Below, in pieces: positions 15,407-52,969 of a DNA stretch of 64,000 bases. A program made the translations under genes and the position numbers. How positions within the stretch are numbered: position 1 is the first letter of the stretch; every line of letters starts with the position of its first letter. This DNA is from Acidobacteriota bacterium (GTDB taxonomy: Bacteria; Acidobacteriota; JAAYUB01): contig JAGNHB010000018.1 of assembly GCA_018001935.1 (NCBI GenBank), positions 14,286-78,285 on the forward strand, written 5' to 3'. A model generated the notes under the pieces. That model worked only from the letters and a program-made list of their open reading frames with translations, was not told the DNA's origin and made no database searches.

Positions 15407-15437
15407 CGAACGCTATTTGCAATGCTGCCGACCGCTC

Positions 15438-15660: not shown

Positions 15661-15678
15661 GAGTTGAAAGCCTCCCGA

Positions 15679-17508: not shown

Positions 17509-19128
17509 TCACGGCAGGCCGAGGTAACTGACCAGGCGCGACTGGTCGACCGCTTCGAGGAACACGTCCCCGAAGATGGGGTGGTCGCTGGTGACCATCA
17601 TCCATACGGCGTCGTTCAGCATGCCCGGGAGGACCGTGACCATGTCTTCGGAACGGCTGCCGCCGGCGAGGAGGAACCCCGCCGGGGAGTCGTAGGTGCC
17701 GACAAGGCTCCCATCCGATGCGAAGGCCTTGACGGTATAAGTGGCGTCAAAGGCTGTCCGGTTGGTGAGGCGCAGCCAGGTCCGCCAGTTCGCAGTGCAG
17801 CGGACCACCGGGAAGAACAGAGCCTTCCGGGACTTGTCGGCTGCCGGCAGGCCGTCGAAGCGGAAGGTGGAGGCGGTTCCGCCGCGGGTCAGGTAGAGTT
17901 CGAAGCCGAGGGCCGGATCGGGCGATGAGACGGTCAGGTAATCGGCCTCGGGGTGGACCGTTCCGTCGAAGACGCTCCAGACTTCCCGGGTGTACTGCTC
18001 CATGGGGTGGATGAGGCGATCCGCCGAGGCCAGGAGGGCGCCGCCCGTGTCCCGCAATTCCGCGTGAAGCGTCTGGTCCGTGGTGGAGAGGTTGCAGAAG
18101 GTGACGCCGGTGTACCAGTTGGTGTTGTCCGGGATTTCGTTGAAGAGGAGTGCCGTGGTGACCCGGTCGGGAGCGCTCTCGAGGCTGCCCCCGCCGGGAA
18201 CCCCTGCGGTCAGGACGCCGCCGGCCCGGTTGAAGGCCGGGAGGCCGGCCAGGCCCGGGCTGCCGAAGTTCCCGAAGAGTTCGAAACCGATGAGGTTCCG
18301 GTCGGAGGCGACGTCCACCAGACGGATGGTGGAGGGGTCCGCCACGCCCGGGAAGCACTCGTTGATGAGACGGACATACTTGCCCATGGCGGGGATGGGC
18401 ACGCTCACGGTGCTCAGGAGGACGCCGGGCTCGCTGTAGGCCTTCAGCTCCACCGTCGCCGCCGCGGGCTTGGTGTTGATGAGGGTGAGCCCCGTGTACC
18501 ACCCCAGGGCCAGCACCACGTAGGGGAAAGTCAGGGCACGGCTGGAGCCGGCCACCATCGGCATGACCACCTGGGAGAGCCCGTCCGTGGTCCCGAACTC
18601 CAGGGCGCCGCGGAGGGGGGCTTCCGAGGACACGGTGATCCAGAGGTCCTGCTGGTACACCGCGGGGTCGAAGAGGGTGTTCACGTCGCGCTGCAGGTGG
18701 GCCCCGGGGGCCAGGGCCGGGGACTTGTACGTCTGGAGCGGTGTGCCCGAGGGGTGGTAGGCGGTGAAGACCACGGGCTCGGCGCCGGCGCCGGTGTTGG
18801 TCACCTGGAGTACCGTCCACCAGGTGGCGGAGCTGGCCGAGTGGGAGGCGTAGAGGAGGGAAGGCGCCGGGGTCAGGAAGCCCCCGGTGAGCTTGAAGGC
18901 GCCGCCGGCGGAAGGGCCGGCGTCGGCCTGGCCGATGACGCCGTCGAGGCCGAAGGGGCGGGCCAGGTCGTACGCGAAGCCCCCCCCGCCGTCCACGGTG
19001 TTCCAGCTCAGGTCGTAGGGCCCGCCGGTCTGGGCCGCGGCGGGGAGCAGCGCGGCGAGGACGAGGGCCGACAGCAGGCCCGGCCGGATTCTGAACGGGT
19101 GTTTCCACATGGCGCACCCCCCGCTCAC
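17509..19128 (-). CDS. secreted repeat-domain protein, paralogous to the C-terminal module of the C1 peptidase
   Basis: signal peptide; shared motifs LIGFELFGNFGSPGLAGLPA, LLFNEIPDNTNWYTGVTF, REVWSVF, LGFELYLTRGG...FRFDGL; GTG start at 19128 overlaps the upstream stop (alternative ATG at 19110). Confidence 0.7.
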   Translation of the reverse strand: MSGGCAMWKHPFRIRPGLLSALVLAALLPAAAQTGGPYDLSWNTVDGGGGFAYDLARPFGLDGVIGQADAGPSAGGAFKLTGGFLTPAPSLLYASHSASSATWWTVLQVTNTGAGAEPVVFTAYHPSGTPLQTYKSPALAPGAHLQRDVNTLFDPAVYQQDLWITVSSEAPLRGALEFGTTDGLSQVVMPMVAGSSRALTFPYVVLALGWYTGLTLINTKPAAATVELKAYSEPGVLLSTVSVPIPAMGKYVRLINECFPGVADPSTIRLVDVASDRNLIGFELFGNFGSPGLAGLPAFNRAGGVLTAGVPGGGSLESAPDRVTTALLFNEIPDNTNWYTGVTFCNLSTTDQTLHAELRDTGGALLASADRLIHPMEQYTREVWSVFDGTVHPEADYLTVSSPDPALGFELYLTRGGTASTFRFDGLPAADKSRKALFFPVVRCTANWRTWLRLTNRTAFDATYTVKAFASDGSLVGTYDSPAGFLLAGGSRSEDMVTVLPGMLNDAVWMMVTSDHPIFGDVFLEAVDQSRLVSYLGLP

Positions 19129-20299: not shown

Positions 20300-20400
20300 G
20301 GGAGGGTGCCCGACACGGAAATGGAACCACGAAATACACGGAAGACACGAAAGGGAAAAGAACCACGAACCACACCAACCACACGAACCGCCTCCGCGGT
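20300..20400. repeat. CACGAAC/ACCACACGAAC short tandem repeat block
   Basis: ggaaccacgaaatacacggaagacacgaaagggaaaagaaccacgaaccacaccaaccacacgaacc; related blocks at 46560-46640 and 63240-63300. Confidence 0.7.
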
Positions 20401-20619: not shown

Positions 20620-20680
20620 GCAGCCGCTGAAGCGCCTACCAGCCTTCAGCCTAACAGCCTTCAGCCTATCTCGCCTCCCC
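20620..20680. repeat. CCTTCAGCCTAACAG heptamer-pair repeat overlapping the stop of the 20666 gene
   Basis: cgcctaccagccttcagcctaacagccttcagcctatctcgcc; the TAG stop is inside cagcctatc. Confidence 0.8.
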
Positions 20681-23540: not shown

Positions 23541-23672
23541 GAAAAGGACAAAAGGACCAAAAGGACATAAAGGACGGCACGGAGGGCAAACGGGTTACCC
23601 TGCGGACGCCCCTGCCCCCACCTGCTGTTATGAAGTCCTTTAAGTCCTTTAAGTCCTTCAAGTCCTTCCCGG
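23541..23672. repeat. inverted pair of AAAGGAC heptamer arrays with an approximately 56-nt loop
   Basis: ggaaaaggacaaaaggaccaaaaggacataaaggacgg ... gtcctttaagtcctttaagtcctttaagtccttcaagtcc. Confidence 0.85.
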
Positions 23673-23766
23673 GCGAAACGGTCCCGTGGGGGGAAGGCGG
23701 GAAAGCCACCGGCCTGGCCGCGTCGCGGCTGCAGGAACAGAAGCCGCCCCCCTCCCTCGGCCGCCG

Positions 23767-23845
23767 CCCCGATCGCCGCCGCCCATCGTCGCCCCCCGAT
23801 CGCCGCCGCCCATCGTCGCCCCCCCCGATCGCCGCCGCCCGCTGA
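23767..23845. repeat. three tandem copies of an approximately 28-bp unit CCCGATCGCCGCCGCCCATCGTCGCCCC
   Basis: read directly in the 5' region of the 23915 gene. Confidence 0.85.
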
Positions 23846-26241: not shown

Positions 26242-26475
26242 ATGGTTCAAGCACTGAAGGAAAAAACGACGGTTCAGGCCGGAGGAACCATTCATCTTGA
26301 AATCCCGGGGCTTACTCCGGGAACACCCGTTGAAGTCGTCGTTTATATCGAAAGCAATTCAACCCCGAAGAAAAACTCTCTTGCAAACAGGGTCGGATCC
26401 GCCAAGGGAGGGTTTTATTCACCCGAAGCGGTTGACGGGTTTCTGTCACAGGAGCGCGGTGCGTGGGAAGATTGA
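26242..26475 (+). CDS. vapB: type II antitoxin VapB-like
   Basis: small ORF MVQALKEKTTVQAGGTIHLEIPGL... immediately upstream of and overlapping a PIN gene. Confidence 0.7.
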   Translation: MVQALKEKTTVQAGGTIHLEIPGLTPGTPVEVVVYIESNSTPKKNSLANRVGSAKGGFYSPEAVDGFLSQERGAWED

Positions 26476-26900
26476 GCGAGTTCTTCGGGAAAAAGATCTA
26501 TCTCGATACAAACGTATTGATCTATGCACTCGAAGGGTTCCCGGATTATTCCGGAGTTCTGACGGCTCTGTTCCAGGCGGTCGATCAGGAGCTTTTGAGG
26601 GCTTTCACCAGCGAGTTGACCATTGCGGAAGTGTTGGTGAAGCCATTCATTGATCGAAACCGGGAGAGGGAACATGCCTATCTGGAACTCTTTGACGGTT
26701 CCGGGCCCCTTCACGTCGAACCGGTTACCCGCAGCATCCTGATCGAGGCCGCCCGATTGCGGGCTTTGCACCCCCTTCGCCTTCCGGATGAAATTCACCT
26801 GGCAACCGCTTTTTTTTCAGAGTGTTCTTTCTTTATCACCAATGATTTCCGCATCAACCCCGTCTCCGGTCTGGATGTCATCCGTTTAAGCGAACTGTAA
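26463..26900 (+). CDS. vapC: PIN-domain toxin VapC
   Basis: KIYLDTNVLIYAL with conserved acidic residues, ITNDF; GTG start overlaps the vapB stop; locally lower GC. Confidence 0.8.
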   Translation: MGRLSEFFGKKIYLDTNVLIYALEGFPDYSGVLTALFQAVDQELLRAFTSELTIAEVLVKPFIDRNREREHAYLELFDGSGPLHVEPVTRSILIEAARLRALHPLRLPDEIHLATAFFSECSFFITNDFRINPVSGLDVIRLSEL

Positions 26901-28565: not shown

Positions 28566-28660
28566 GAATCAGGATCACGGACAACAGTCTCCCAGGACCG
28601 CCTCCAGGCGGTCACCGCCTTTCTCGCCAAACAGGCAGGCCAGCAGGGCCGATGCATCAA
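28566..28660 (-). pseudogene. truncated PIN (VapC) toxin remnant, 31 codons
   Basis: MIALDASALLACLFGEKGGDRLEAVLGDCCP then stop; ATG overlaps the antitoxin stop (ATGA); the remainder of the PIN domain is not recoverable in any frame. Confidence 0.5.
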
Positions 28661-28666
28661 GGGCGA

Positions 28667-28918
28667 TCATTCGTCCCCCGTCTCTTCCCGCCGTTCCGCG
28701 AGGAAAGCGTCCACGACGCCCGAGGGCTTTTGCCCGCCGTAGAGGCGATTAACCCACTCCGCAAGCGATTCACGAGGCCGGGCATCCTCTTCCGGACGGC
28801 AGGACTCGGTCAGGATCGCCCGGGCCTCCGCCTCCATGCTCCGATTGGCCCGGGCCGCCCGGAGCCTCGGCCGCGCATGGACCTCCGTTGGGAGATTCTG
28901 GATATTCAGGGTCGCCAT
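28667..28918 (-). CDS. RHH-type antitoxin (FitA/VapB, plasmid-stability family)
   Basis: MATLNIQNLPTEVHARPRLRAARANRSMEAEARAIL matches the Arc/MetJ-type antitoxin consensus. Confidence 0.7.
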   Translation of the reverse strand: MATLNIQNLPTEVHARPRLRAARANRSMEAEARAILTESCRPEEDARPRESLAEWVNRLYGGQKPSGVVDAFLAERREETGDE

Positions 28919-29106
28919 GGGGTCACCTCCTCCTTGCCATGCTTTCATTGTGGGCAATGACTACGATGATATCAAGTCAGTTCCAGGCTTTCACGTCCTC
29001 AGGGATCGCCAAGCGGAAAAACAGGTCCCCGCCGTGGACGGGTGTCGCCAGCGGGGACCTGTTGTGGACAGGTGTCGCGGAAATTCCGTCCGTGGGCGGT
29101 GAGCCC

Positions 29107-31572
29107 TCACTCGTACCGCAGGGCGGCCAGGGGGTCGATGCGGGTGGCGCGGAAGGCGGGGATGTAGCCCGCCAGGAGCCCCACCAGGGCCAGGATGACC
29201 GGGACCGCGACGAACGTGGCGGGGTCGGTGGCGGGGATCCCGAAGAGCATGCTCTCCAGGACGCGGGTCAGGGCGAGCGCACCCGCCAGTCCGAGAACGA
29301 GCCCCAGGGCGATGAGCAGGCCGGCCTGCCCGAGGATGAGCCGGAGGATATCGGCCCCCCGGGCGCCCAGGGCGATGCGGACGCCCATCTCGTGGGTCCG
29401 CTGGGCCACCGAGTACGACATCACGCCGTAGATCCCCACCGCGGAGAGCAGCAGGGCGAGCCCCGCGAAGACCGAGAGGAGCATCATGGAGAAGCGCTGG
29501 GACGCCACCACCTCCGACAGCCGGTCTTCCATCAGGCGGACGTCGGACAGGGCGAGTTCGGGGTCGAGCCGTTTCACTACGGCACGGATCTCGGGGAGGA
29601 ACGTCAGCGGGTCGACGTCGGAGGCCACCACGATCCGCTGGGAGCGGAGGAAGTCGCCGACGGGGAACTCCAGCCAGTCGTCCTGTTCCTGGGCGTAGGG
29701 AGAGTAGGAGCGGGGCTTCGGCTGCAGGTGAAGGGGGCCGTCCTTGACGTCCGCCACCGTCCCTACCACCGTGAGCCACTCCTTTCCCCAGCGAATCCGC
29801 TTCCCGAGCGGGTCCTGCGACGGCCAGTACGCCCGGGCCATGGACTCGCTCACCACGGCCACCGGAACTTGCCCCGCCCGGTCGGCCTCCGTGAAGACAC
29901 GGCCGCGGCGGAGCGGGATCTGCATGGCCTCGAAGTAATCCCCCTGGACCCAGGTCTGGGTGGCGGAGAGGGGGCCCTCCCCCTGGGTCGAATGACCTTC
30001 GACCTCTATGGCGTGCACTTCGCCGATTTCCAGGGGGACGGAGGAAGCGGCGGCCGCCTTGCGGACGCCCGGCAGTTCAGCGGTCCTGGCCAGGACCTGG
30101 TCGTAGAGGTTTCGGATCCTGGGGGCCTTGTCATAGGCATTGTGGGGGAGGGTGAGGGTGAAGGTGAGCACCCGGCGGGCCTTGAAGCCGGGGTCGGTGT
30201 CCAGCAGCCGGAGGAAGCTCCGGACGAGCAGCCCCGCCCCGGTGAGCAGGACCAGCGCCAGGGCCACCTGGACCACCACGAATGCCGATTGGAGCCGGCG
30301 CCGGCCGCGGGAGGCCCCGCCGCTCCGCCCGCCCTCGGCCAGGGCCTCCTGGAAGCTGGTCCGGGAGGCCATGAGGCCCGGGGCCAGGCCGAAAACCAGG
30401 GTGGTCAGGAGGGAGATCCCCAGGGTGTAGAGGAGGACGGTCCCGTCGATGCCGATCTCCTGGGCGCGGGGGAGCCCCTCGGGGACGAGGGAGAGGAACG
30501 CGTCCTTCCCAACGGCGGCCAGGAGGACCCCCAGGGCGCCGCCCAGGACGGAGAGGACCAGCCCTTCCGTCAGCATCTGGCGGACCAGCCTCGCGGGGCT
30601 CGCGCCGAGGGCCCCCCGGATGGCGATTTCCTTGCGGCGGGCCGCGGCGCGGGCCAGGAGCAGGTTCGCCACGTTGGCGCACCCGATCAGCAGGACCAGG
30701 GCCACGGCGGCGAGGAGGATGAACAGGGGGGTCCGGACGTCGCCCACCACCACGGCCTGGAGGGGTTCCACGGACAGGGCGACCCCCGGGAAGACTTCCC
30801 GCAATTTGGCCGGGTAGCTCTCGTCGATCCGCTTCGCCAGGGCGGCGGTTTCCTCCCGGGCGCGTTCCAGCGAGACGCCGGGCTTCAGGCGCCCCACGAC
30901 GCTGTTGTTGAACATGGATCCCTGGGATTCGAATTCCAGGGACGTGAAGGCGATGGGGAAGAACAGTTCCGCGGGCTCGCCGTTGTAAGGGAGACCCTTC
31001 AGGGGAAACTGGACTCCCTCGGGGAGCACTCCCACCACCACGGCGGTGTGCCGGTTCAGGCGGATGGTTTTCCCGACGAGGGCCGGATCGGCGCCGAACC
31101 GCCGCTTCCACAAGCCGTACGACAAGATCACCGCCCCTTCGCCCGGCCGGTCCTCCTCGGCTTGGAACGAACGTCCCCGGACCGGGTTGATCCCCAGCAT
31201 CGGGAAGAGGTTCACCGAGACGCGCGCCCCTTTCACCCGTTCCGGGACCCCGCCCCCGTCGAGATCCACGGTGACGCACTGGAACGCGGCCGTTTCCTCG
31301 AAGCAGGTCTGTTGTTCCTGGAACAGCCGGTAATCGGGCGCGGAGAAGGGGAGTACCGGGAGGTCGGCCTTGGGGATCCCCTCGTTGACGAGGACCAGTC
31401 GCTCGGCGCCGCGAAAAGGGAGCGGCCGGAGCAGGACCGCGTGGACGATGCTGAAGATCACCGTGTTGGCGGCGATCCCCAGCGCGAGGGTGAGGAGGGC
31501 CGCGCCGGCGAAGACGCGGTCCTTCATCAGCATCCGGAAGCCGTATCGAAGGTCTTTGAGCAGCGTGTTCAT
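29107..31572 (-). CDS. ABC transporter permease with duplicated FtsX domain and MacB periplasmic core (ADOP family)
   Basis: 821 aa; two FtsX 4-TM bundles each preceded by a periplasmic MacB_PCD-like domain. Confidence 0.85.
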   Translation of the reverse strand: MNTLLKDLRYGFRMLMKDRVFAGAALLTLALGIAANTVIFSIVHAVLLRPLPFRGAERLVLVNEGIPKADLPVLPFSAPDYRLFQEQQTCFEETAAFQCVTVDLDGGGVPERVKGARVSVNLFPMLGINPVRGRSFQAEEDRPGEGAVILSYGLWKRRFGADPALVGKTIRLNRHTAVVVGVLPEGVQFPLKGLPYNGEPAELFFPIAFTSLEFESQGSMFNNSVVGRLKPGVSLERAREETAALAKRIDESYPAKLREVFPGVALSVEPLQAVVVGDVRTPLFILLAAVALVLLIGCANVANLLLARAAARRKEIAIRGALGASPARLVRQMLTEGLVLSVLGGALGVLLAAVGKDAFLSLVPEGLPRAQEIGIDGTVLLYTLGISLLTTLVFGLAPGLMASRTSFQEALAEGGRSGGASRGRRRLQSAFVVVQVALALVLLTGAGLLVRSFLRLLDTDPGFKARRVLTFTLTLPHNAYDKAPRIRNLYDQVLARTAELPGVRKAAAASSVPLEIGEVHAIEVEGHSTQGEGPLSATQTWVQGDYFEAMQIPLRRGRVFTEADRAGQVPVAVVSESMARAYWPSQDPLGKRIRWGKEWLTVVGTVADVKDGPLHLQPKPRSYSPYAQEQDDWLEFPVGDFLRSQRIVVASDVDPLTFLPEIRAVVKRLDPELALSDVRLMEDRLSEVVASQRFSMMLLSVFAGLALLLSAVGIYGVMSYSVAQRTHEMGVRIALGARGADILRLILGQAGLLIALGLVLGLAGALALTRVLESMLFGIPATDPATFVAVPVILALVGLLAGYIPAFRATRIDPLAALRYE

Positions 31573-31639
31573 GGGATTCCCCTTGATTTCAGTGTTCGGC
31601 GATTCGGTGGCGCGAGAACGAAGTCAGGAGTCAGGAGGA

Positions 31640-31815
31640 AGAGGAGGGATGGGAATAGTGGGAGTTATGGGAATTCTGGGAGTTGTCAAGATGTGGGAGG
31701 AAAGGGGAGAGAAAGGGGCAAGAAGAGGCAAGAACCCCCCAGGCTCCCGCAATTGCCACGAATCCCATAATTCCCATAACTCCCATCATTCCCATCATTC
31801 CCATTCTCCCCTCAC
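31640..31815. repeat. inverted pair of 9-nt tandem arrays (GGGAATGAT/GGGAGTTAT versus CCCATAATT/CCCATCATT) between the ATPase and permease genes
   Basis: gggaatagtgggagttatgggaattctgggagttg ... cccataattcccataactcccatcattcccatcattccc. Confidence 0.85.
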
Positions 31816-31828
31816 CCTGCGCCAACCC

Positions 31829-32530
31829 TCAGTGCCCCCCTCGTGTCTCCTCCACGATCCGGCCGTCGAACAGGTGGATGACCCGGCCAGAGGCGGCGGT
31901 ATAACGGGGGTCGTGGGTCACCATGCAGATGGTGGTCCCTTCCGCGTTGAGCTGGTGCAGCAGGTTCATCACCACCTCGCCGTTCTTGGAGTCCAGGTTC
32001 CCGGTGGGCTCGTCCGCCAGCAGGATCTGGGGCTTGCCCGCCAGCGCCCTCGCCACGGCGGCGCGCTGCTGCTGCCCGCCCGAGAGCTGGGAGGGGTAGT
32101 GCTTCACCCGGTGGGCCAGTTCGACCCGTTCCAGGGCCTCCAGGGCGCGTTTCCGGCGCTCCGCCGCCGGCATCCCCCGGTAGGTGAGGGGAAGCTCCAC
32201 ATTCTCGAGGATGGTGAGGTCGCCGATGAGGTTGAAAGCCTGGAAGATGAAGCCGATCTCCCGGTTTCGGATACGGGCCCGCTCCCGGGCGCCCAGGTCG
32301 GACACCGCGTGGCCGTCGAGGAGGTAGGTCCCCTCCGTGGGGGAATCGAGGAGTCCCAGGAGGGACAGCAGGGTGGACTTCCCGCAGCCGGAGGGGCCCG
32401 CGATGGAGAGGTAGTCCCCCGGGCGGATTTCCAGGTGGATCCCCGCCAGGGCGTGGGTCTCCACCTCGTCGGTGTAGAAGACCTTGCGGATGTTCTCGAG
32501 CTTGATCAGGGATCTGCCGTTGTCGTTCAT
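31829..32530 (-). CDS. ABC transporter ATP-binding protein (MacB/LolD type)
   Basis: Walker A GPSGCGKST, Q-loop, signature LSGGQQQRAAVARAL, Walker B LLADEPTGNLD; ATG at 32530 with GGAGG RBS; the upstream ORF extension is spurious. Confidence 0.9.
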   Translation of the reverse strand: MNDNGRSLIKLENIRKVFYTDEVETHALAGIHLEIRPGDYLSIAGPSGCGKSTLLSLLGLLDSPTEGTYLLDGHAVSDLGARERARIRNREIGFIFQAFNLIGDLTILENVELPLTYRGMPAAERRKRALEALERVELAHRVKHYPSQLSGGQQQRAAVARALAGKPQILLADEPTGNLDSKNGEVVMNLLHQLNAEGTTICMVTHDPRYTAASGRVIHLFDGRIVEETRGGH

Positions 32531-32539
32531 GATATGTTC

Positions 32540-32925
32540 CTCCACTCGGAGCTGTTTTTCGATGGGCATGGGATGTTTATCGGAGTCGGAAAAGGACGAA
32601 AGGACCAAAAGGACCAAAAGGACCAAAGGGACGGCAAGAACCGAAAAACATGAAAGATATGAAAGACATGAAAGACATGATCCCCAACCTCCAGCCCTGG
32701 CCTTCCGCCTTGTGTCTGCAACATCTTTCCGCCTCGTGTCTCCGACAAGCCTTCCGCCTCGTGTCTCCCGCAAACCTTCCGCCTGTTTCCCTTGCGATGC
32801 CGATTGCGATGCCGATTGCGACTGCGATTGCGACTGCGATTGCGATACCGATACCGATACCGATTCCGACCCCGATGGGAAGATCCCCGGACCTTCAGCC
32901 TAACAGCCTTCAGCCTAACAGCCTA
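32540..32925. repeat. composite repeat element: AAAGGAC x5, ATGAAAGAC x3, approximately 21-nt CCTTCCGCCTCGTGTCTCC x3-4, GATKGCGA/GATACC hexamer array, CCGATGGGAAGATCCCCGGACC linker, TTCAGCCTAACAGCC x2
   Basis: read directly; fills the whole 390-bp spacer between macA and the ATPase gene; the macA TAG stop lies in the terminal cagcctac. Confidence 0.9.
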
Positions 32926-34176
32926 CTTCAGCTGTATCCGGTCCGCGTCGCCCAGGCGGGCCGTGTCGGAGAGGATCACCCGGTCGCCGGGGTTGAGGCC
33001 GCGAACCACCTCGATGGTGTTGACGGAGGTGCGGCCGAAGGTGACGGGAACCCGGACGGCAACCGTGCCGTCCCCCTCGAGGCGGAAGACGCTCGCCGTG
33101 CCGTTCTCCTGGGCGTAGGCGGGTCGGCCGACGTACACCACGTCGTCGAGGCGGACGATCTCCACGGTCCCGTCCACGCTGAGGTCGGGGCGCGCACCCT
33201 TGGGCAGTTCACCCTCGAGGGCGATGTCGAGGGTCACCGTGCCGTTGCGGACGGCGGGGTCGATCCGGGCCACGCGCCCGGGGATGACGCCGTTGCGGGT
33301 GTCCACCGTGGCGGGCTGGCCCACGGCCACGTCGCGGGCCTCGGTTTCCCGGACCTTGATCTCGGCCTTGAGCCGGCCGGGGTTGGCCACCCGGGCCAAA
33401 TTGGCGCCGGCGACTACCTGCTGGCCGACTTCCACGGGGACCTCCTGGATCACGCCGTCGATGCCGGCCCGCACCCGCAACGCGGCCAGTTGCTCCTCCC
33501 GGATCCGGCACTGGGCGCGGACCTGTTCAACCCGGGCGCGCTGGACCTCCAGCTGGGCCTTCATGGCGTCGGCGCCGATGGCCAGCCGCTTGACCTCGAT
33601 GGCGTGGCGGGTGTTGAGTTCCTCGGCCCGGAGGCGGGAGCGCTTGAGCTCGACGTCGGAGATGAGACCGTCCCGGGAAAGCTCGGAATTCACGTCGGCC
33701 TGCAGCTTGGCCTGGCTGAAGTCGGACAGGGCGCTGGCCTCCACCGCCTGCTGGGTCAACCGCTGGCTCTCCAGCTGGACCTGCAGGTTGTTGAGTTCCG
33801 CCAGGGAGGCTTTGAGCTGCATCCGGGCGTCCACGACGGTCTCCTCGAGTTCGGGGTTGCTCAGGACCAGGATCTCGGTGTCGGCGCTCACCCGCGCCCC
33901 CGGTTTCACCAGGATCCGCACCACCCGCCCGGACGTCAGGGCCGGGACCAGGGCGACTTCCTCGGTGACCAGGGTGCCCACGCCGCGGACCTGCCGCAGC
34001 ATCCGCCCGCGCTGGACGGTGTCGATCCAGACGGACGCCCTTTCCACCGAGGGAACCGCGGGTTTCATCCGCAGCACGAACCACGCCCCCGCGGCCACGG
34101 CGCCTCCCACCAGGAGGAAAACGGCGATCTGCCGAATCCGCTTCTTCGCCTTTGCCGGTCGATGTTGAATGTCCAT
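32923..34176 (-). CDS. HlyD-family periplasmic adaptor (MacA-like membrane fusion protein)
   Basis: N-terminal TM, long coiled-coil region, beta-barrel and MP domains. Confidence 0.85.
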   Translation of the reverse strand: MDIQHRPAKAKKRIRQIAVFLLVGGAVAAGAWFVLRMKPAVPSVERASVWIDTVQRGRMLRQVRGVGTLVTEEVALVPALTSGRVVRILVKPGARVSADTEILVLSNPELEETVVDARMQLKASLAELNNLQVQLESQRLTQQAVEASALSDFSQAKLQADVNSELSRDGLISDVELKRSRLRAEELNTRHAIEVKRLAIGADAMKAQLEVQRARVEQVRAQCRIREEQLAALRVRAGIDGVIQEVPVEVGQQVVAGANLARVANPGRLKAEIKVRETEARDVAVGQPATVDTRNGVIPGRVARIDPAVRNGTVTLDIALEGELPKGARPDLSVDGTVEIVRLDDVVYVGRPAYAQENGTASVFRLEGDGTVAVRVPVTFGRTSVNTIEVVRGLNPGDRVILSDTARLGDADRIQLK

Positions 34177-34339
34177 GTCTCACCCCCGCACGTCTCAATA
34201 CGCAGATCCCGTGCCAAAAACCGGGCATCGACCCCCTCTCTCGGCCGCCGTCAAATTCCGGGTTCAGACCGCCTCCGCCACCCGAAGTTCTCTAAATGTG
34301 AAAAACGTGAAGTTTAGACAATCGATCCCGCCTTCTGCG

Positions 34340-34389
34340 CCTTCTGTGTATTCTGCGGTCCCAGGCCGCGGAATACGCAGAACATACGG
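34340..34389. repeat. closely spaced inverted pair of the GCAGAATACGCAGAACA motif (hairpin, no ORF between)
   Basis: ccttctgtgtattctgcggtccc-agg-ccgcggaatacgcagaacatacgg. Confidence 0.7.
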
Positions 34390-36834: not shown

Positions 36835-37011
36835 CGGCCCGGGCGGCGAGGGGTGCGGGCCCGGCCGGCTGGCCCCGGCGACGTAAACCGGGACGGGGGC
36901 CGGGAGGGGTCCGGGCGATTTTTCGGGAATCGGGGCAGGGCGTGAATCCCTGACCGGTCACCGGCCGTATCTGTAAAACGGGGTGGCGGTTGGGCCGACG
37001 GGAAACCCGTC

Positions 37012-37080
37012 AGCGCCGCGCGCGTAGGCAAGCGGTTGAAGATTTTGCAGTTGCCACCATTTCTCGGTCGCGGCTCCGTT
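37012..37080. promoter_or_regulatory. copy of the GCCGCGCGCGTA(A/G)GCAAGCGGTT(G/A)AAG motif with downstream inverted arm GGTCGCGGCTC
   Basis: cagcgccgcgcgcgtaggcaagcggttgaag ... tctcggtcgcggctccg; compare 52911-52940 and the 15470-15600 tandem copies. Confidence 0.5.
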
Positions 37081-37181
37081 TTGCCGCGGTAACTTTCGGG
37101 CCTGCAATAGCCCGGATTCTGATCTCACTGAGGCAGGGAGACACGGGGAAGAACCCTTACGATTGTTGAGCCCGTCAGATC

Positions 37182-37215
37182 CGATTCGCATTTCTCCGTG
37201 CCTCCGTGAGAGATG
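37182..37215 (+). promoter_or_regulatory. conserved 32-bp motif CGATTCGCATTTCTCCGTGCCTCCGTGAGAGA, 47-78 nt upstream of the sensor-kinase start
   Basis: 30/32 identity to the reverse complement of 17138-17169, which sits at a similar distance upstream of another gene. Confidence 0.5.
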
Positions 37216-41513: not shown

Positions 41514-41628
41514 GAACAGCCGCACAAAACCCGAAAAAAAACTCGGAATTTCTTCCGCAGAAACGTTGATATAGGAGGGAGTGATTGCCCTGAGGTCATG
41601 ATTCTTCCCGTCGGCGATGATCTGTTCT

Positions 41629-41655
41629 GAACCGCAGAATACGCAGAACACGCAG
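41629..41655 (+). repeat. left inverted repeat GAACCGCAGAATACGCAGAACACGCAG flanking the GxxExxY gene
   Basis: about 21/27 identity to the reverse complement of 42328-42354. Confidence 0.7.
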
Positions 41656-41806
41656 ATGTAGAAGTGTAGCGATTATAGGGTTTGAGGATGGAAAGAGGTG
41701 ATGCCAGAGATGAGAAGAGAATTCGTGAAGGGGGTGGAAGAGATTTGAAAGATGTGGGAAGTGGGCCGGAGGAGGGTGTGAAAAGAACTTGAGGAAGAGG
41801 AGGTGG

Positions 41807-42262
41807 ATGATGGGGGTCAGGCAGAGTGCTTCCGATTCGGACGGTTTTCCTTTGAAAGACGAGGGATACGCAATCCTGGGTGCCGTGTTTGAAGTGTACA
41901 AGGTGATGGGGTGTGGTTTCCTTGAGGCTGTTTACCAGGAGTGCCTCGAGTACGAGTTCGAAGACCGGGGAATTCCCTTCGAGGCGAACCCGAACCTCAC
42001 CATCGATTTCAAGAAGCGACGCTTGAAGAGGAAATATCAACCTGATTTTCTGTGTTTCAGCCAGATTGTGGTGGAACTCAAAGCGGTCTCGGCGCTGATT
42101 CCCGAGTATCGTGCCCAGCTTCACAATTACTTGAAAGTTTCCGGCATGACCGTCGGTTACCTTGTCAATTTCGGGCATTTCCCCCTTGTGGAATACGAAC
42201 GCATCATCCGGACCGACCCGGAGAAGGGACGCCAAAACGGGAGCACGAACGGGGAACCGTGA
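41807..42262 (+). CDS. GxxExxY family protein (PD-(D/E)XK nuclease superfamily)
   Basis: LKDEGYAILGAVFEVYKVMGCGFLEAVYQECLEYEF...QPDFLC...IVVELKAV; strong GAGGAGG RBS; AT-richer flanks. Confidence 0.75.
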   Translation: MMGVRQSASDSDGFPLKDEGYAILGAVFEVYKVMGCGFLEAVYQECLEYEFEDRGIPFEANPNLTIDFKKRRLKRKYQPDFLCFSQIVVELKAVSALIPEYRAQLHNYLKVSGMTVGYLVNFGHFPLVEYERIIRTDPEKGRQNGSTNGEP

Positions 42263-42327
42263 TGGCCTTCCGATGACACCATCTCCGTCTCTCAGATAGA
42301 CCGAAAAAATAGATAATATAACTCTTT

Positions 42328-42354
42328 CTGCTTATTCTGCGTATTCTGTGGTTC
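42328..42354 (-). repeat. right inverted repeat (reverse complement GAACCACAGAATACGCAGAATAAGCAG) flanking the GxxExxY gene
   Basis: ctgcttattctgcgtattctgtggttc; overlaps the stop codon of the sensor kinase gene. Confidence 0.7.
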
Positions 42355-43774
42355 ACTCAGGATTGGGCGGGGGGGGAGGTGCTGGGGCGGGGAGGGCGGG
42401 GATGCGGACCCGGAACACCGCCCCCTGGCCCGGCTCGCTCTCCACTTCCACGCTCCCCCGGTGCAGCTCCACCAGGTCCTTGACGATGGAGAGCCCCAGG
42501 CCCGTGGAGTGCTCGCCGCCCGTCGGCCGGGCGCTGAGGCGCTGGAATCGCCCGAAGACCCGCTCCCGGTCGCCCTCCGACAGGCCGGGCCCCCGGTCGT
42601 GGACCTCGAAGCGGACTTCCCCGTTCTCCCGGCACAGCCGCAGGAAAATCACCCCCCCCGGCGGCGAGAACTTGACGGCGTTGCTCACCAGGTTGTCCAT
42701 GACCTGCTGGAGGCGCAGCCGGTCCCCCCGCACGCGACACCCCTCCCCGGGCTCCAGCACGAGGGTCTGCCCCTTTCGCGCCGCCAGCGGCCGGTTGAGG
42801 CTGACCACCGACTCCGCCAGCGGCCCCAGGAGCAGTTCCTCCTCCACCAGCTGGAGGCGGCCGGTGTCGATGACCACGGTGTCCAGCAGCTCGTTGATGA
42901 GGGTCACCATCTTCTCGGAGGCGCTGATGATCATCTCCAGCTGTTCGATCCCCTTCCGGTCTTCCTTGATCCGCCGCCGGAGAAGTTTCGAGAACCCGGT
43001 CACGACCTGGAGCGGGTTCTTCAGGTCGTGGGCGGCGACGGCGAGGATGGAACTCTTGAGGTCGTTCACCTGCCGAAGTTCCTCGTTGGTCCGCCGCAGC
43101 TCGTCGGCCGTGGTCTCCAGGCTCCGGTTGGCCTCCATGAGCTTCAGCTGCACCCGTTGGAGCTGGATGTTGCTCAGGTGGATGGTCTGCTGGGCGACGA
43201 AGTTGTCGCGGCGGGCCCGTTCGAGGAGAACGGCCGCCACGACGGCGATGAGCGTCGCCTCGGCGAAGTTGAACAGCCCGTAGAGCCGCTGGGGGGTGTC
43301 GAAGCGCATCCCCCGGCACAGGCCAAGGGCGGCGAAGAGGGCGATGGAAAGGGCGATCAGCCACAGGGAATTCTTGCGGCCCAGGGGCGCCATGGGGAGG
43401 ATCAGCAGGATGATGCTGAAGCCGCCGAGGTACACGGGGTCGCCGCCCACCAGCCCGAGGATGGCGCCGGCCGAGAGGTTCAGGTAGGCGAAGAGGGCCA
43501 GGAGGAGGACGTGGCTGTTCTCGCGGACCCGGGGGAGGGCCAGCAGGGCGAGGACGCCGGCCCCGACGACGGTGAGGCCGAGCCTCAGGGCGGTCACGAG
43601 GTCGTTGCCGGGGAAGAGATGGCGGTCCACCAGGAGGAAGGGGATCCAGGCCGCCAGGGAGGCCAGGGCGGCGGGCAGCACCAGGGGCCGGCTCAGGCGC
43701 TCCAGGTCCATCCCGAAGGCGTAGTCGCCGAACAGTTCCTCGTGCCCCGCGAGGTCGGGCGCGTCGTCGTGCAT
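42353..43774 (-). CDS. membrane sensor histidine kinase (orphan, no cognate regulator adjacent)
   Basis: 6 TM helices, coiled coil, HisKA AHDLKNPL, HATPase_c N/G boxes (HDRGPGLS, GLGLSIV); ATG at 43774 with GGAGG RBS. Confidence 0.8.
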   Translation of the reverse strand: MHDDAPDLAGHEELFGDYAFGMDLERLSRPLVLPAALASLAAWIPFLLVDRHLFPGNDLVTALRLGLTVVGAGVLALLALPRVRENSHVLLLALFAYLNLSAGAILGLVGGDPVYLGGFSIILLILPMAPLGRKNSLWLIALSIALFAALGLCRGMRFDTPQRLYGLFNFAEATLIAVVAAVLLERARRDNFVAQQTIHLSNIQLQRVQLKLMEANRSLETTADELRRTNEELRQVNDLKSSILAVAAHDLKNPLQVVTGFSKLLRRRIKEDRKGIEQLEMIISASEKMVTLINELLDTVVIDTGRLQLVEEELLLGPLAESVVSLNRPLAARKGQTLVLEPGEGCRVRGDRLRLQQVMDNLVSNAVKFSPPGGVIFLRLCRENGEVRFEVHDRGPGLSEGDRERVFGRFQRLSARPTGGEHSTGLGLSIVKDLVELHRGSVEVESEPGQGAVFRVRIPALPAPAPPPPPNPE

Positions 43775-43949
43775 GACCGGGATTTCCTCCCCGTGGGCGG
43801 CCGCGATCCCGGATTTCACGCCGGGCGGCTCCCGGCGGCCGCGCCTGTCCGAATTGTACCCCAGAGTCGAGGGCTTGTTCAACCGGTCTGAAAAGCCCGC
43901 AACGTTGACCGTTCCTGCGCTCGTGCCGCCTCCCTGGCGATTCGTTTTC

Positions 43950-44300
43950 CTTCGCGATCTTGGCGCCTTGGCGAGAGCCGACCCGGATCTTGATCTCGTA
44001 AAGGCGCAAAGATCGCAAAGGAAGACTGCAAAAGGAAGGGAGAAGATCGAGGGTTGCGGGCTGTAGTCGACAAGGGGGCCGCCGATCCCGGTCGCGAGCG
44101 CGTCCCCGGTCGAGTGCGACAGCGCGTGCGAGTGCGGCTGCGACAGCGCATGCGATTGCGATTGCGATTGCGATTGCGACGGCGATTGCGACGGCGATTG
44201 CGATACCGATAGCGATTGCGATACCGACCCCGATACCGATACCGACCTCGATGGGAACCCCTCCGGACCTACAGCCTACAGCCTATAGCCTACAGCCTAA
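43950..44300. repeat. composite repeat element: GCAAAG block, long GCGAYWGCGA/GATACC hexamer array, CTCGATGGGAACCCCTCCGGACC linker, CCTACAG x4
   Basis: read directly; lies immediately downstream of the 44312 gene. Confidence 0.9.
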
Positions 44301-44311
44301 CCCGGCGGCGG

Positions 44312-46539: not shown

Positions 46540-46559
46540 GCCAACCTCACTCGGAGTAT

Positions 46560-47030
46560 AAACCAAGAACCACACGAAACAGCGACCACGAAACACTTGA
46601 AAACGGAACCGCAAACCGCACGAAAGAGAACCGCCCCTTGTTTGTCGGGAAGGCGGACCGAATTCCCGCGAAGAAACAGGACAGGCCGGAAATCAACCGC
46701 TCGAGGGCGTTCTGGTTTTCCGGGAAAGGACGAAAGGACTTAAAGGACCAAAACGACCCAAAGGACAGGGTGGGCGGCCACTTTTTCTCCGCGGTCCGGT
46801 TCGGGGATCCCGCACCGTGATCCGTTTCTTCTCATCGCTCCCCTTCATCCCCTTCATCCCCTTCATCCCATTCATCCCATTCATCCCATTTATCCCATTT
46901 ATCCCATTCATCCCATCATTCCCATTCTCCCCACTCTCTGCTTTCTTCTCTCTTTTTCTTTGCTTTCTTTGCTCTCTTTGCTTTCTTTGCGGTTTCTGCT
47001 CTCTTTGTGGCTTCCCCCGGTTTCGCGCCC
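46560..47030. repeat. composite repeat region: CACGAAC block, AAAGGAC x5, CCCATTCAT 9-mer x10, CTTTGCTTT array
   Basis: read directly. Confidence 0.9.
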
Positions 47031-47031
47031 G

Positions 47032-48807
47032 TCACTTCCTGTAAAGTCGGCGGGCGAAGGCGCGGGCGAAGTCCACCATTTCCTCCTGGGTGTTGACGAA
47101 GTGGACGTTCCAGCCCTGCTCCCGGAGTCGTTGAACCTCGGGCGATGCGTAAGACTCCGGCATGTGCAGCACGAAGGTGCCGCCCCCCCTCGCCGCCGCC
47201 AGGGCCCGGGCGGCGACCCCCCAGCCGTCCGGTGCGTCCTCCAGCATGTGGAAGATGTCGTGGTCGGACACCACCATGACGTGGACGGGATTGCGGGGGG
47301 GCGGCCCTTTCAGGAACGCATCCTCCAGCCGGAGGACCCCGAAGGCGTAGCCGGTGCCGAGGTAGTTGACCAGGACCTCCAGGACTTCCGCCGGGTTGCG
47401 GATGAACCCGCGGGTCTGGTGGAATTTTCCCGGTTCGCCGGAGAGGCACGCCATCACCCGCGCCCCGGCCCGCAGCGCCGACAGGGCCACGATGGCGCCC
47501 GCCAGGACCGGGTGGGAGAGATGCGCCGCCGGGTTGAGCATGGAGCCCGAGCAGTCGATGCCGAGGTAGAGGTCGGTGGGGACCCGGGCGGGCTCGGGGC
47601 CCTCCACCGCCCCGTGGAGCCGCCGGACCGTGGTCACGCCGGGGATCACCACCGGACTGCGGACGGCCGTCTCCACCCAGTCGATCTCCTGGGGGCTTCG
47701 GCCCGTGTCCCACACGTCCACGCCCTCGGGTTGGGGTTCCATGGATTTCCCGAGGACCTTGACGGGAAAGCGGATCAGGTGGGGAATGGCCCGCTCCCGG
47801 TAGTAGCGGGCGACCAGGTCCTGCTCGGGAACGTCCACCCCGAGGCCCCGCATCAGCGCGGTGTACGCCTCGGGGTCGCGGTACGTCTTCACCCCGCCCA
47901 CGGTCTCCTTCCCGTCACCCGCCACGGGCGCCTTCTCGGGGGCCGCCGCCTCCCCCGTCACCAGCGGGTCCTCGGCGGGGTGGACGGCGGCCTCCTCGTC
48001 CGCCTCGATCTCGGCCAGGCCGTCGGGGACCTCGATCCCGGCGCCCGCCTGCGCGGTGTCGAGCCAGATCATCCGCCCCCGGCCCAGGCCTTCCTGCTCC
48101 GGTATCTCCAGAAAGTAGGGGAGCAGCAGCGCGGCGAAGCGGCCAGCGCCCTTGAGCCAGTCCTTCGCGTAGACGCGGACGACCCGGGCCCCGAGGCCGG
48201 CGTCCACCTCCAGGGCGGGGTCGGGCGGCCCCGCCGCCGCCAGCGTCCCGCCCGGCAGGGCCCACAGGACCTCGTAGATCCGCATGTAGAGGCGCCACAG
48301 CCGGTCGTCTTCCCTCGTTTTGCCCCTGAGCGCCCGGTAGACGGCGGCCATGTCGAGGCCGGCGCCGCGCTGGAGACGGTCGTTGACCAGGAGGTCGGCG
48401 TAGAGGTTGGCCGCCAGTCCCGCGAAGGCCTCGCGGGTGGGGAGGCCCGCGCGCATGCGGGCCAGGAGGCGGCCGTTGTCGGCCAGGTCGGCGGGGCACA
48501 GGGCGTGGTGCCCCGCCTCGTGGGCCAGGATGGCGGTGGCCAGGGCGTGGTGACCGGCTTCGTGGGCCGGGATGGCGGGGTCGCGCTGGTCCAGTCCCAG
48601 TTCCTGGATTTTCCGGAGGTTGATCACCACGGTGTGGTCGAGGAGCCGGATCATGGCGATGGAATCGTAGATCCCCTCGTCCTCCTCCCTCAGGCGCCAC
48701 GTGGGCGGCCTCAGGCGCAGGAAGGGGCTCCAGGCCGCCAGGGCCGCCGGCCAGCACGCCTCCCACCCGGCCTGCAGGGAAGCGAGCGCGGCGTCCTTCG
48801 CCCTCAC
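47032..48807 (-). CDS. vWA (MIDAS) domain protein with N-terminal HExxH metallopeptidase-like motif (DUF2201-like architecture)
   Basis: MIDAS DLYLGIDCSGSM; duplicated HEAGHHAL; GTG start at 48807 overlaps the upstream stop (GTGA); alternative ATG at 48654. Confidence 0.7.
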   Translation of the reverse strand: MRAKDAALASLQAGWEACWPAALAAWSPFLRLRPPTWRLREEDEGIYDSIAMIRLLDHTVVINLRKIQELGLDQRDPAIPAHEAGHHALATAILAHEAGHHALCPADLADNGRLLARMRAGLPTREAFAGLAANLYADLLVNDRLQRGAGLDMAAVYRALRGKTREDDRLWRLYMRIYEVLWALPGGTLAAAGPPDPALEVDAGLGARVVRVYAKDWLKGAGRFAALLLPYFLEIPEQEGLGRGRMIWLDTAQAGAGIEVPDGLAEIEADEEAAVHPAEDPLVTGEAAAPEKAPVAGDGKETVGGVKTYRDPEAYTALMRGLGVDVPEQDLVARYYRERAIPHLIRFPVKVLGKSMEPQPEGVDVWDTGRSPQEIDWVETAVRSPVVIPGVTTVRRLHGAVEGPEPARVPTDLYLGIDCSGSMLNPAAHLSHPVLAGAIVALSALRAGARVMACLSGEPGKFHQTRGFIRNPAEVLEVLVNYLGTGYAFGVLRLEDAFLKGPPPRNPVHVMVVSDHDIFHMLEDAPDGWGVAARALAAARGGGTFVLHMPESYASPEVQRLREQGWNVHFVNTQEEMVDFARAFARRLYRK

Positions 48808-52940: not shown

Positions 52941-52969
52941 ATCTGTTATTTACCACTTGGAGGTGCGTA

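Follow-up and report, generated by a model that had tools for sequence, protein, structure and literature searches.

Modular short-tandem-repeat elements in the two spacers of a MacAB-type efflux operon from an Acidobacteriota bacterium

Why are the three genes of a putative MacAB-type efflux operon set apart by several hundred base pairs (bp) of largely repetitive DNA? This question is raised by a stretch of 64,000 nucleotides (nt) from an uncultured Acidobacteriota bacterium (assembly GCA_018001935.1, contig JAGNHB010000018.1, positions 14,286 to 78,285; hereafter, the window), in which the adaptor gene macA is separated from the ATPase gene by a spacer of 392 bp (S1, positions 32531-32922 of the window) and the ATPase gene from the permease gene by a spacer of 256 bp (S2, 31573-31828). 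A preliminary description of the locus had placed both spacers at these coordinates, with lengths of 390 and 255 bp that are corrected here, and had regarded them as hairpin-prone devices affecting expression within the operon. We consider it probable that S1 and S2 are insertions of multi-copy, lineage-specific and modular short-tandem-repeat elements, non-coding in nature, into an efflux operon that used to be compact. Good support exists for the structural description, for an origin within this lineage and for the membership of the spacers in a repeat family; judging from predicted folding, a regulatory effect on the operon would be plausible for S2 only.

Operon and spacer architecture

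The three genes, like the spacer features described below, lie on the minus strand of the window, and their assignment to a co-directional MacAB-type set was borne out by profile searches. They encode a macA-type periplasmic adaptor (membrane fusion protein, MFP) of 417 amino acids (aa) at 32923-34176, which matched Pfam HlyD_3/HlyD_D23 and TIGR01730 (126 bits; cutoff, 94.9); an ABC transporter ATPase of the MacB/LolD type (233 aa, 31829-32530; PF00005, 117.8 bits); and a duplicated MacB-type permease of the ADOP family (821 aa, 29107-31572, MBP7866125.1; TIGR03434, 953.9 bits; cutoff, 622.3), in which MacB_PCD and FtsX were each matched twice, as expected of a duplication. The NCBI protein accessions are consecutive through the three genes. 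Tripartite efflux systems of the MacAB type with an ADOP permease have a duplicated permease and, adjoining it, genes for an MFP adaptor and a separate or fused ABC ATPase, and the locus shows all of these. All equivalog models fell below their cutoffs for the ATPase, so that the locus is described as a putative efflux system without an assigned substrate, and no outer-membrane channel family of the TolC type was detected among the neighboring genes scanned in the window.

The permease family is highly paralogous, and true orthologues were therefore chosen by identity before the contigs were fetched. In the orthologous operon of L085 (68% permease identity), the MFP-ATPase and ATPase-permease gaps were 33 and 19 bp, and in that of L086 (63%) they were 51 and -4 bp (an overlap), as against 392 and 256 bp in the window (100%). 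In L084 (89%), the ATPase-permease spacer measured 251 bp, the MFP-ATPase gap not being covered. Among 82 ADOP loci, eight had an adjacent ATPase gene, at a gap of -4 to 177 bp. The earlier view that the spacers are abnormal for an operon, for which a comparison with relatives had been named as the check, was thus upheld, since the orthologous operons lack similarly long spacers. From the 33/19-bp and 51/-4-bp spacers of the orthologues, we conclude that S1 and S2 were added to a compact operon within this lineage. The repeat vocabulary of the spacers was absent from the relatives at 63-68% identity and common to those at 89-94% identity, and a permease query of species-representative genomes gave only matches of at most 46% identity, none of them with this vocabulary. 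An 848-bp gap upstream of the MFP gene in L086 (3971-4819 of that contig) contains 3.4 copies of a 16-mer (GGAACGGAGAACAGAT), the sole repeat of such a kind seen in the more distant relatives.

The GC content, which is 68% for the window, drops from about 0.70 to 0.46-0.55 within S1 and S2. Arrays detected by Tandem Repeats Finder (TRF) with a score of at least 40 covered 72% of the bases of S1 and 49% of those of S2, the remainder consisting of unique linker and of the Shine-Dalgarno region of the ATPase gene and the permease gene, respectively; the initial statement that the spacers contain nothing but repeats was therefore mostly right and slightly overstated. S1 is composed of five tandem arrays that run in the same direction and are placed end to end with linkers. 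Starting from macA, the first is a heptamer-octamer array (TAGGCTG/TTAGGCTG/AAGGCTG, a 15-mer in 2.2 copies, 32892-32925) whose register matches the macA stop. It is joined by a conserved unique linker (32870-32891; plus strand, CCGATGGGAAGATCCCCGGACCT), also present at 44250-44276 and 54567-54593, to a CGATNN/TTGCGA hexamer array of about 13 units (32792-32869), which is 80-88% identical to arrays at 826-926, 44151-44252 and 54499-54569. Then follow 3.4 copies of a 25-mer (GCCTTCCGCCTCGTGTCTCCAACAA, 32700-32784), 4.2 copies of a 9-mer (GAAAGACAT, 32643-32680) and 4.9 copies of a second 9-mer (AAAAGGACC, 32590-32632), copies of which occur at 46724, 51522, 51697 and 23542. The Shine-Dalgarno sequence GGAGGA (32538-32543) is located 7 nt before the ATPase ATG and is identical in L084.

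S2 has a different layout, in which two opposed 9-mer arrays surround a purine-rich center. The array of the 5' arm (sense, ATGGGAATG; plus strand, TCCCATAAT) comprises 4.7 copies at 31763-31804 and shares a 25-nt flank with an array at 46839-46938, and that of the 3' arm (sense, NNNTCCCAT; plus strand, ATGGGAATA) comprises about four copies at 31649-31684. Inverted 9-mer arrays, which had been ascribed to both spacers, were found in S2, where the inverted arms extend over 49 nt with 82% complementarity, and not in S1, all arrays of which are direct and point one way. The Shine-Dalgarno sequence AAGGGG (31579-31584) precedes the permease ATG by 6 nt. A 6-bp direct repeat, CACTGA, stands on both sides of S2 and is degenerate in L084; target duplication, insertion by microhomology or coincidence may account for it. 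The first 30 nt of S2 (GGCGCAGGGTGAGGGGAGAATG, 31795-31828) resemble the ancestral junction of ATPase end, Shine-Dalgarno sequence and permease ATG in the orthologues (GCGCAGGGGGAGAAATG and GGCGAGGGGAGCAGAACGATG; L086 6815-6840 and L085 9980-10003), and the present Shine-Dalgarno sequence and ATG of the permease gene (AAGGGGAATCCCATG) look like a second copy of this junction.

We further compared S1 with its counterparts in three relatives of 94% MacA identity. The C-terminus of MacA aligned residue for residue with those of the orthologues, which indicates that the array starts at the position of the native stop; this stop reads TAG in the window, as against TGA in L085 and L086. In the close relatives, the stop is followed by two to three heptamers (L087 and L088) or by seven (L089), then by a different linker and directly by the TGGTCCTTT array, and the hexamer, 25-mer and ATGTCTTTC modules are missing, giving spacers of about 160-216 bp (the contig ends of these relatives overlap the start of L084). 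Whole modules of S1 are gained or lost over a short timescale. Such variation in module content at 94% MacA identity fits turnover of elements better than a tuned regulatory spacer, and S1 is probably tolerated passenger DNA.

Since misassembly had been mentioned as a possible source of the spacers, we compared the locus with independent assemblies. Logan assemblies from two other runs reproduced 29980-32620 at 100% identity, which confirms S2 in full and, in S1, the 90 bp next to the ATPase gene. The Logan contigs all stop within arrays, either in the AAAGGACC array, 90 nt before the ATPase start, or 24-26 nt past the macA stop. Short-read contigs from at least five sequencing runs likewise end within arrays, with the AAAAGGACC array of S1 serving as a break point. 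This is the expected behavior of de Bruijn graphs for repeats present at many genomic sites, and the arrays split short-read assemblies of this lineage at predictable places. Both S1 ends and S2 were thus corroborated, and the S1 interior was found only in the deposited metagenome-assembled genome (MAG). It could be argued that the assembler walked through shared arrays into the module of another locus and that the true S1 measures about 160-216 bp: the segment 32621-32897 has no independent contig, the same-strain contigs stopping on either side of it; its hexamer-linker-heptamer module occurs at two or more other loci with 81-82% identity; and the close relatives lack these modules. However, an identity of no more than 81-88% to the other copies shows that the module is not a collapsed duplicate, and by our reading of the sequence the extra block is bordered on either side by sequence with homology to the relatives' linker, a pattern expected of a true insertion. 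Considering also the independent confirmation of S2 and of both S1 ends, we regard a partly artefactual S1 as quite improbable.

A repeat family across the window

The units of S1 and S2 are not confined to the operon. The AAAGGACCA, TCCCATNNN and TTCTGCGTA 9-mers, the CGATNN hexamers, the TAGGCTG heptamers and the conserved linker recur in about 11 of the 26 intergenic regions of the window. Tandem repeats made up 12.9% of intergenic and 1.6% of coding bases, with arrays in 11 of 26 intergenic regions; these figures were obtained with a rough gene model, which assigned the arrays at 23542-23840 to coding sequence despite their location in a divergent intergenic region, so that the true contrast is larger. 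The density of tandem repeats was 33.5 bp/kb, compared with a median of 3.0 in 68 Acidobacteriota/Gemmatimonadota loci (1.24 Mb), one of which was higher. The linker motif GATGGGAA-N7-GGACCTWCAGCC occurred three times in the window (expected, 0.00), and the hexamer-linker-heptamer module was 81-82% identical over 123-137 nt among three loci. Besides that of S1, these are a module at 44111-44300 (minus strand; 82% identical to S1 over 137 nt), which follows the stop of an AMP-binding gene at a distance of 12 nt, and a module at 54499-54645 (minus strand), at the 3' end of a minus-strand gene of about 2090 aa.

Further members of the family were located by TRF. Hexamer arrays were found at 826-1022, 44111-44252, 54499-54569 and 51739-51777, and TAGGCTG-type heptamers at 6823-6852, 20634-20670, 44268-44299 and 54585-54638. 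The AAAGGACCA 9-mers occur at 23542-23575, 46724-46766 and 51522-51564 and, inverted, at 23633-23667 and 51697-51739; the TCCCATNNN 9-mers at 46839-46931; the CACGAACCA 9-mers at 20328-20389 and 63262-63285; and the TTCTGCGTA/GAACACGCA 9-mers at 34329-34357, 41629-41656 and 42326-42348. Several families may share one region: 46724-47007 contains AAAGGACNN, TCCCATTCA (10 copies) and TTTCTTTGC arrays, of which the first two belong to unit families of S1 and S2, and 51522-51777 combines inverted AAAGGACCA/GTCCTTTG arrays with a degenerate hexamer module.

Because these loci share identical units together with common non-repetitive linkers and flanks, they are best regarded as dispersed copies of composite elements rather than as microsatellites that arose independently, and because such copies lie between genes all along the 64 kb, S1 and S2 are not specific to the operon. 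The framing of the spacers as a device of this operon, adopted in the preliminary description, accordingly found no support, since the same units and linkers fill many unrelated intergenic regions. The repeats are a trait of this stretch of the genome, not a control device built for this operon. A metagenome scan with the linker motif of the module returned one match, by chance, in a low-GC coding region. A search of the literature aimed at such repeats, which was limited, yielded no description of these particular elements, and the unit sequences themselves matched primers only.

A possible mobilizing enzyme was sought within the family's surroundings. Two sensor-kinase genes converge on an island of low GC content (0.50) at 41628-42357, in which a GxxExxY/PDDEXK_3 gene was recognized (41789-42262; TIGR04256, 129 bits). 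An array of about 30 nt borders this gene on each side, the two being inverted relative to each other: the left-hand one is (CGCAGAAYA)x3 and the right-hand one (TTCTGCKTA)x3, and it is at the latter that same-strain short-read contigs all end. This PD-(D/E)XK gene was considered as a mobilizer and judged unlikely, a 65%-identical homologue from another organism being located in a plain operon without arrays; moreover, the orientation of the flanking TTCTGCGTA-type arrays differs from that in the small hairpin upstream of macA. An empty-versus-filled comparison of the kinase-sensor intergenic region aligned too poorly for insertion boundaries to be defined.

Structure and expression signals of the spacers

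The suggestion that the spacers are hairpin-prone held for one of the two. The predicted RNA structure of S1 was no better than that of shuffled sequences (z = +1.1 with 200 shuffles; +1.3 in the dinucleotide-shuffle series). For S2, the minimum free energy was -115.9 kcal/mol (z = -6.0 with 200 shuffles; -8.1 with 24 shuffles), corresponding to a long imperfect hairpin of 222 nt (31606-31827) with 57 pairs in its main stem and a core of 31 pairs between 31764-31796 and 31648-31680; the hairpin begins directly past the ATPase stop. The same division was seen when repeat-rich intergenic regions of the window were folded against dinucleotide shuffles. Regions with inverted arrays were predicted to form long hairpins (802-1082, z = -9.2, with an inverted hexamer-array pair at 826-1040; 15407-15678, -8.2; 51410-51830, -5.9, including the inverted arrays at 51522-51777; and 6526-6843, -5.7), and regions with one-directional arrays had no structure (43883-44311, -0.9; 46540-47031, 0.0; and 54200-54642, -1.3). 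Seven coding segments used as controls gave z values of -2.0 to +1.6.

We then asked how S2 compares with the spacer of L084, the hairpin of which had a z value of -5.7. The two spacers share 65% of their bases, which is below the 73-78% observed at the four-fold degenerate sites of the flanking genes. An RNAalifold consensus contained 64 pairs with eight compensatory changes and no broken pair, a result obtained from the very two sequences that it scores. When the fold of the window was mapped on L084, 37 pairs were unchanged, five were compensatory, 13 were kept after a change on one side, 22 of 77 were broken and six were gapped. In the antisense orientation, the window gave as strong a fold as in the sense orientation, and L084 a weaker one. 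We therefore make no claim of selection on the RNA for S2, the consensus being circular and the unbiased mapping showing 22 broken pairs without strand asymmetry. What these two sequences do show is that the potential to form the S2 hairpin is maintained, and the cause may be selection on RNA, a requirement of the element itself or homogenization of the arms at the DNA level.

These observations bear on the possibility that the spacers are a regulatory device selected for the operon, which by processing, attenuation or stability would set the ratio of adaptor, ATPase and permease near 6:2:1. This is the stoichiometry of MacAB-type pumps, and the duplication of the permease is observed here; the gene order fits the falling stoichiometry expected with a duplicated permease. 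The potential and length of the S2 hairpin, which starts immediately behind the ATPase gene, have been kept in the 89% relative despite fast sequence change. Against this, the same elements occupy many unrelated intergenic regions, spacers of -4 to 51 bp suffice in orthologous pumps, S1 has no structure and its modules come and go between close relatives, and the hairpin lacks the strand asymmetry that would indicate selection on RNA. A device selected for this operon is thus unlikely, and insertion of lineage-specific repeat elements remains our preferred explanation.

We also searched for signals of transcription. A consensus scan detected no sigma-70-like promoter in or around S1 and S2. 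A sigma-54-like -24/-12 element (TGGCACGGGATCTGC, 34202-34216, minus strand), which L087 and L089 have conserved, is located a short distance ahead of macA; it is the only one in the window and the only promoter candidate of the operon, and by itself it is not significant (2.8 expected by chance). The orthologous operons in L085 and L086 are preceded by genes for a sigma-54 activator and a histidine kinase. In the same upstream region, the window has a divergent gene for a Ser/Thr kinase fused to an FGE-sulfatase domain, unlike the more distant orthologues, and a small hairpin of opposed TTCTGCGTA/CGCAGAANA 9-mers at 34290-34360 that is likewise shared with L087 and L089. Scanning revealed no canonical terminator; weak terminator-like matches numbered three (1.4 +/- 1.3 expected), one of them internal to the S2 hairpin. 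The sequence 3' of this hairpin (CCUCCUCUUCCUCCUGAC) has no U run, which sets it apart from intrinsic terminators. The Shine-Dalgarno sequences of the ATPase and permease genes are conserved in L084.

If the insertions carried or created promoters or terminators, the three genes might no longer form one operon, with the ATPase and permease genes transcribed separately. Gaps of 392 and 256 bp are roomy enough for promoters, each downstream gene has a Shine-Dalgarno sequence of its own, and the long S2 hairpin could terminate transcription without a U-tract, as terminators of this type are known in other high-GC bacteria. However, neither spacer contains a sigma-70-like or sigma-54-like promoter, no hairpin is followed by a T run apart from the weak internal match, and conservation extends to the order and orientation of the genes and to the sigma-54-like element ahead of them. 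A split operon is therefore improbable.

The coding potential of the arrays was examined next to their composition. The period was a multiple of three in 26 of 34 non-redundant intergenic arrays, 18 of which had periods of 9, 18 or 27; the window arrays include at least nine unrelated 9-mer families, and regions containing hexamers are depleted in stop codons. In S1, 11 stop codons were counted (23.7 +/- 3.3 in shuffles), and two frames are fully open. These features could suggest that the arrays encode small repetitive peptides, such as the 64-aa product of an open reading frame (ORF) at 31631-31825 on the minus strand (MGMMGMMGVMG...HNSHNSH) or a DxDxD... peptide on the plus strand of S1, and an ORF of similar composition is, by eye, open in the L084 spacer. 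However, the spacers of relatives differ by indels of 2-5 nt that break the frame, the 25-mer and heptamer arrays do not have periods divisible by three, and, by our reading of the sequence, the units would require codons ending in A or T, as opposed to a GC content at third codon positions (GC3) of about 0.9 in the called genes. The translations are low-complexity junk, no spacer matched Pfam or Rfam at threshold, and the ORFs have no properly spaced Shine-Dalgarno sequence; the unbroken series of NCBI accessions noted above also speaks against coding. In the whole window, Rfam gave no match either; at E<=1, nearly all hits were to generic long-hairpin models of miRNA precursors from plants and animals, on both strands, which reached 24-42 bits where 80-168 would be required, and the two remaining hits, to a lncRNA region and to a 3' UTR element, were just as far from their thresholds. 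We find peptide-coding arrays hardly credible, and the arrays are treated as non-coding on the strength of these comparisons.

Taken together, the following picture may be proposed. Each element is a string of arrays with units of 6, 7, 9 or 25 nt joined by short conserved linkers, with related copies in roughly 40% of the intergenic regions of the window, and there are two forms, one with inverted arrays that are predicted to give long hairpins (as in S2) and one with one-way arrays that give no structure (as in S1). The elements might spread by transposition, by recombination between dispersed copies or by slippage. The heptamer end of S1, (TAGGCTG)n, begins exactly at the macA stop and supplies it. 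The operon is probably still one transcript, made from the sigma-54-like promoter upstream of macA, with the ATPase and the permease each translated from its own retained Shine-Dalgarno sequence. The S2 hairpin would be the only part of this transcript likely to matter, in the manner of a REP/BIME-like or a U-tract-less terminator hairpin; acting as a barrier to 3' exonucleases, a target of RNase III or a partial terminator, it could lower the amount of permease relative to ATPase.

Several points weigh against the insertion of mobile-like repeat elements as set out here. No transposase, RAYT, insertion sequence (IS) or other mobilizing enzyme was found in the 64-kb window, and no clear target-site duplication was recognized. 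Spread throughout the genome is an extrapolation from the window and from the pattern of contig breaks, and the S1 interior (about 32621-32897) is present in the deposited MAG assembly only. The S2 hairpin and a nearly constant spacer length (251 and 256 bp) have been held through a divergence that saturates synonymous sites, which could mean that S2 is functional rather than a passenger; the broken pairs and missing strand asymmetry of the unbiased mapping also belong here. The promoter scan covered the sigma-70 consensus, and promoters of Acidobacteriota are poorly known. Finally, from the sequence we infer continued co-transcription and a stabilizing or attenuating role of S2.

Other repeats and genes of the window were noted in passing. 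A separate dispersed 37-mer (TCAGAGCCGCGCGCGTAAGCAAGCGGCCATTTTCCCC) is present in 2.9 tandem copies at 15480-15586, within the region 15407-15678 (z = -8.2), and singly at 37006-37035 and 52913-52942, and the L089 contig starts exactly at this repeat. Non-tandem intergenic segments of 40-75 nt form inverted pairs with 79-88% identity (17138-17212 with 37139-37213, and 54435-54487 with 61218-61319). Longer gaps at 26463-26900, 28652-28960 and 52023-52415 contain small genes of the toxin-antitoxin type, namely a PIN domain, a FitA-like ribbon-helix-helix (RHH) protein and an MNT-type nucleotidyltransferase, the FitA-like RHH label being taken from gene calls on L083. Large ORFs with high GC3 and without any Pfam family are located at 54643-60912 (about 2090 aa), 47032-48831, 15679-17076 and 17509-19128.

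Stop-codon register and comparison with known repeat systems

The macA stop (TAG, 32923-32925) was confirmed to lie within the repeat, the TAGGCTG-type array having it as its first unit. In the sense direction, the sequence of the heptamer arrays is TAG-GCTG-TAG-GCTG, and four of the five in the window begin with the TAG of the gene itself (6844, 20666, 32923 and 54643), the fifth starting 12 nt after a TGA (44312). For the gene of about 2090 aa, the TAG stop (54643-54645) is two bases ahead of the first TAGGCTG unit. TAG stops numbered eight among the 31 genes of a crude gene call, and these four genes supply half of them.

A similar register was observed in viral contigs. Scanning IMG/VR for (TAGGCTG)3 yielded 13 stretches, most with a GC content of 0.58-0.65 (range, 0.40-0.65) and crowded with heptamer arrays, often in inverted pairs. 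In these stretches, 10 of 23 arrays begin between -18 and +9 nt from a stop on the same strand, compared with 6.9% of random positions (P = 1.3e-6; ORFs of at least 80 codons on the strand of the array). One of the contigs, L109, carries a structural gene module of a phage (for Mu F-like, capsid and cement proteins) with arrays behind most co-directional genes, and matched no deposited phage. Since stop-anchored arrays occur in IMG/VR contigs, they are not peculiar to this operon or organism. In L100-L112, and especially at 1-10246 of L109, the heptamers TAGGCTG, AGCTATC, GCTGAAA and AATCCGC are seen, often as inverted pairs directly past stops. The distal arm of one such pair in L109, within the 5' end of the next gene, reads ...LATAYSLQPTAC..., similar to a lipoprotein signal peptide, and the (ATCTGCGCA) and (GCGCAGAG) arrays of L109 and L106 resemble the TTCTGCGTA 9-mers of the window.

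Speculatively, and with low confidence, (TAGGCTG)n, perhaps with the whole repeat system, could be a gene-end element that recognizes or replaces stop codons and is common to this Acidobacteriota lineage and to high-GC phage or prophage contigs. Such an element may be mobile DNA of a new, non-autonomous kind with insertion precisely at TAG or TGA stops, or it may provide, at 3' ends, a translation stop in all frames together with a landing site for an RNA-binding factor; this factor, encoded by host or phage, would control termination, decay or translation of the next cistron. Hairpins of inverted arrays such as S2 may represent this system in paired form. Of the testable leads on the origin or role of such repeats, the stop-codon register is the most promising.

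With regard to known systems, the S2 hairpin has its best functional analogy in the REP, BIME and REPIN sequences of enterobacteria and pseudomonads. Stem-loops of this class within operons can stabilize the upstream mRNA and skew operon expression, as is reportedly the case for the malE-malF REP of Newbury et al. in 1987. In the window, direct repeats of 6-9 nt serve as units, palindromy results only where two 9-nt direct-repeat arrays oppose each other, and no RAYT gene is present in the 64 kb, whereas REP sequences are single imperfect palindromes of 20-40 nt mobilized by RAYT. The REP class consists of high-copy extragenic elements (PMC3116915).

The best positional analogy is with mycobacterial MIRU. 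These are tandem repeats within operons, reportedly described by Supply et al. in 1997, with ends that overlap the flanking stop and start codons and copy numbers that vary between strains. MIRU form a single family of 40-100 bp with short ORFs that may allow translational coupling, unlike the 6-25-nt units of the window, which fall into several families without a conserved coupling ORF: the macA stop is overlapped, and no ORF extends from stop to start, given the stops of S1 in the relevant frames and the indels of the relatives. Modular, intergenic and hairpin-capable mosaics whose module content varies between strains include pneumococcal BOX, in which boxA and boxC surround a variable number of boxB, and elements resembling miniature inverted-repeat transposable elements (MITEs). 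BOX modules measure 45-59 nt, and the units of the window are far shorter and have no definable terminal inverted repeats with target-site duplication. S2 has inverted arms, its only flanking direct repeat is the CACTGA, which could be due to chance, and no IS was found in the window. Membership in REP, MITE, MIRU, intrinsic terminators or any Rfam family is not supported.

A closer resemblance is to the cyanobacterial STRR heptamer repeats, which were reportedly described by Mazel et al. in 1990. The STRR1-3 consensus sequences, which we take to be CCCCAGT, TTGGTCA and CAACAGT, differ from every unit in the window. As expected of STRR-type repeats, five TAGGCTG arrays and at least nine 9-mer families are spread over 11 of 26 intergenic regions. 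TAACTGA direct repeats occur in Beggiatoaceae, Cyanobacteria and Bacteroidetes, and in the Guaymas 'Maribeggiatoa' the majority are located just upstream of start codons (PMC4679880). Both systems share with the window dispersed intergenic heptamers that contain stop codons, and their patchy distribution suggests horizontal spread by a mechanism that is not known; likewise, TAGGCTG arrays occur in unrelated IMG/VR contigs. The TAACTGA repeats differ in lying near start codons, whereas the TAGGCTG arrays begin at stop codons, and the window is dominated by 9-mers and hexamers, heptamers being one module among several.

Geobacter metallireducens provides a further parallel, which together with the STRR and TAACTGA repeats is among the nearest described: multicopy intergenic sites consist of three to five tandem units of 7-9 nt (TCTCCGTS[Y], MTYCTGA and GGACCGG), are often paired on opposite strands at variable distance and are missing from a sister species, and their function has been guessed to involve a global regulator or RNA elements (PMC2700814). 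Both systems have lineage-specific intergenic arrays of short units, often in opposed pairs; the unit sequences differ, the elements of the window chain several array types and conserved linkers into blocks of 130-390 bp, and arrays in register with stop codons or splitting operons are not reported in the passages of that paper considered here. The operon constitutes a natural experiment, in which spacers of 250-390 bp are tolerated between genes whose products have to assemble in fixed ratios. If the repeats prove to be genome-wide, they would represent an extreme case of intergenic DNA colonized by modular arrays with units of 6-9 nt, in a phylum with few cultured members, and would extend a phenomenon known from cyanobacteria, Geobacter and Beggiatoaceae.

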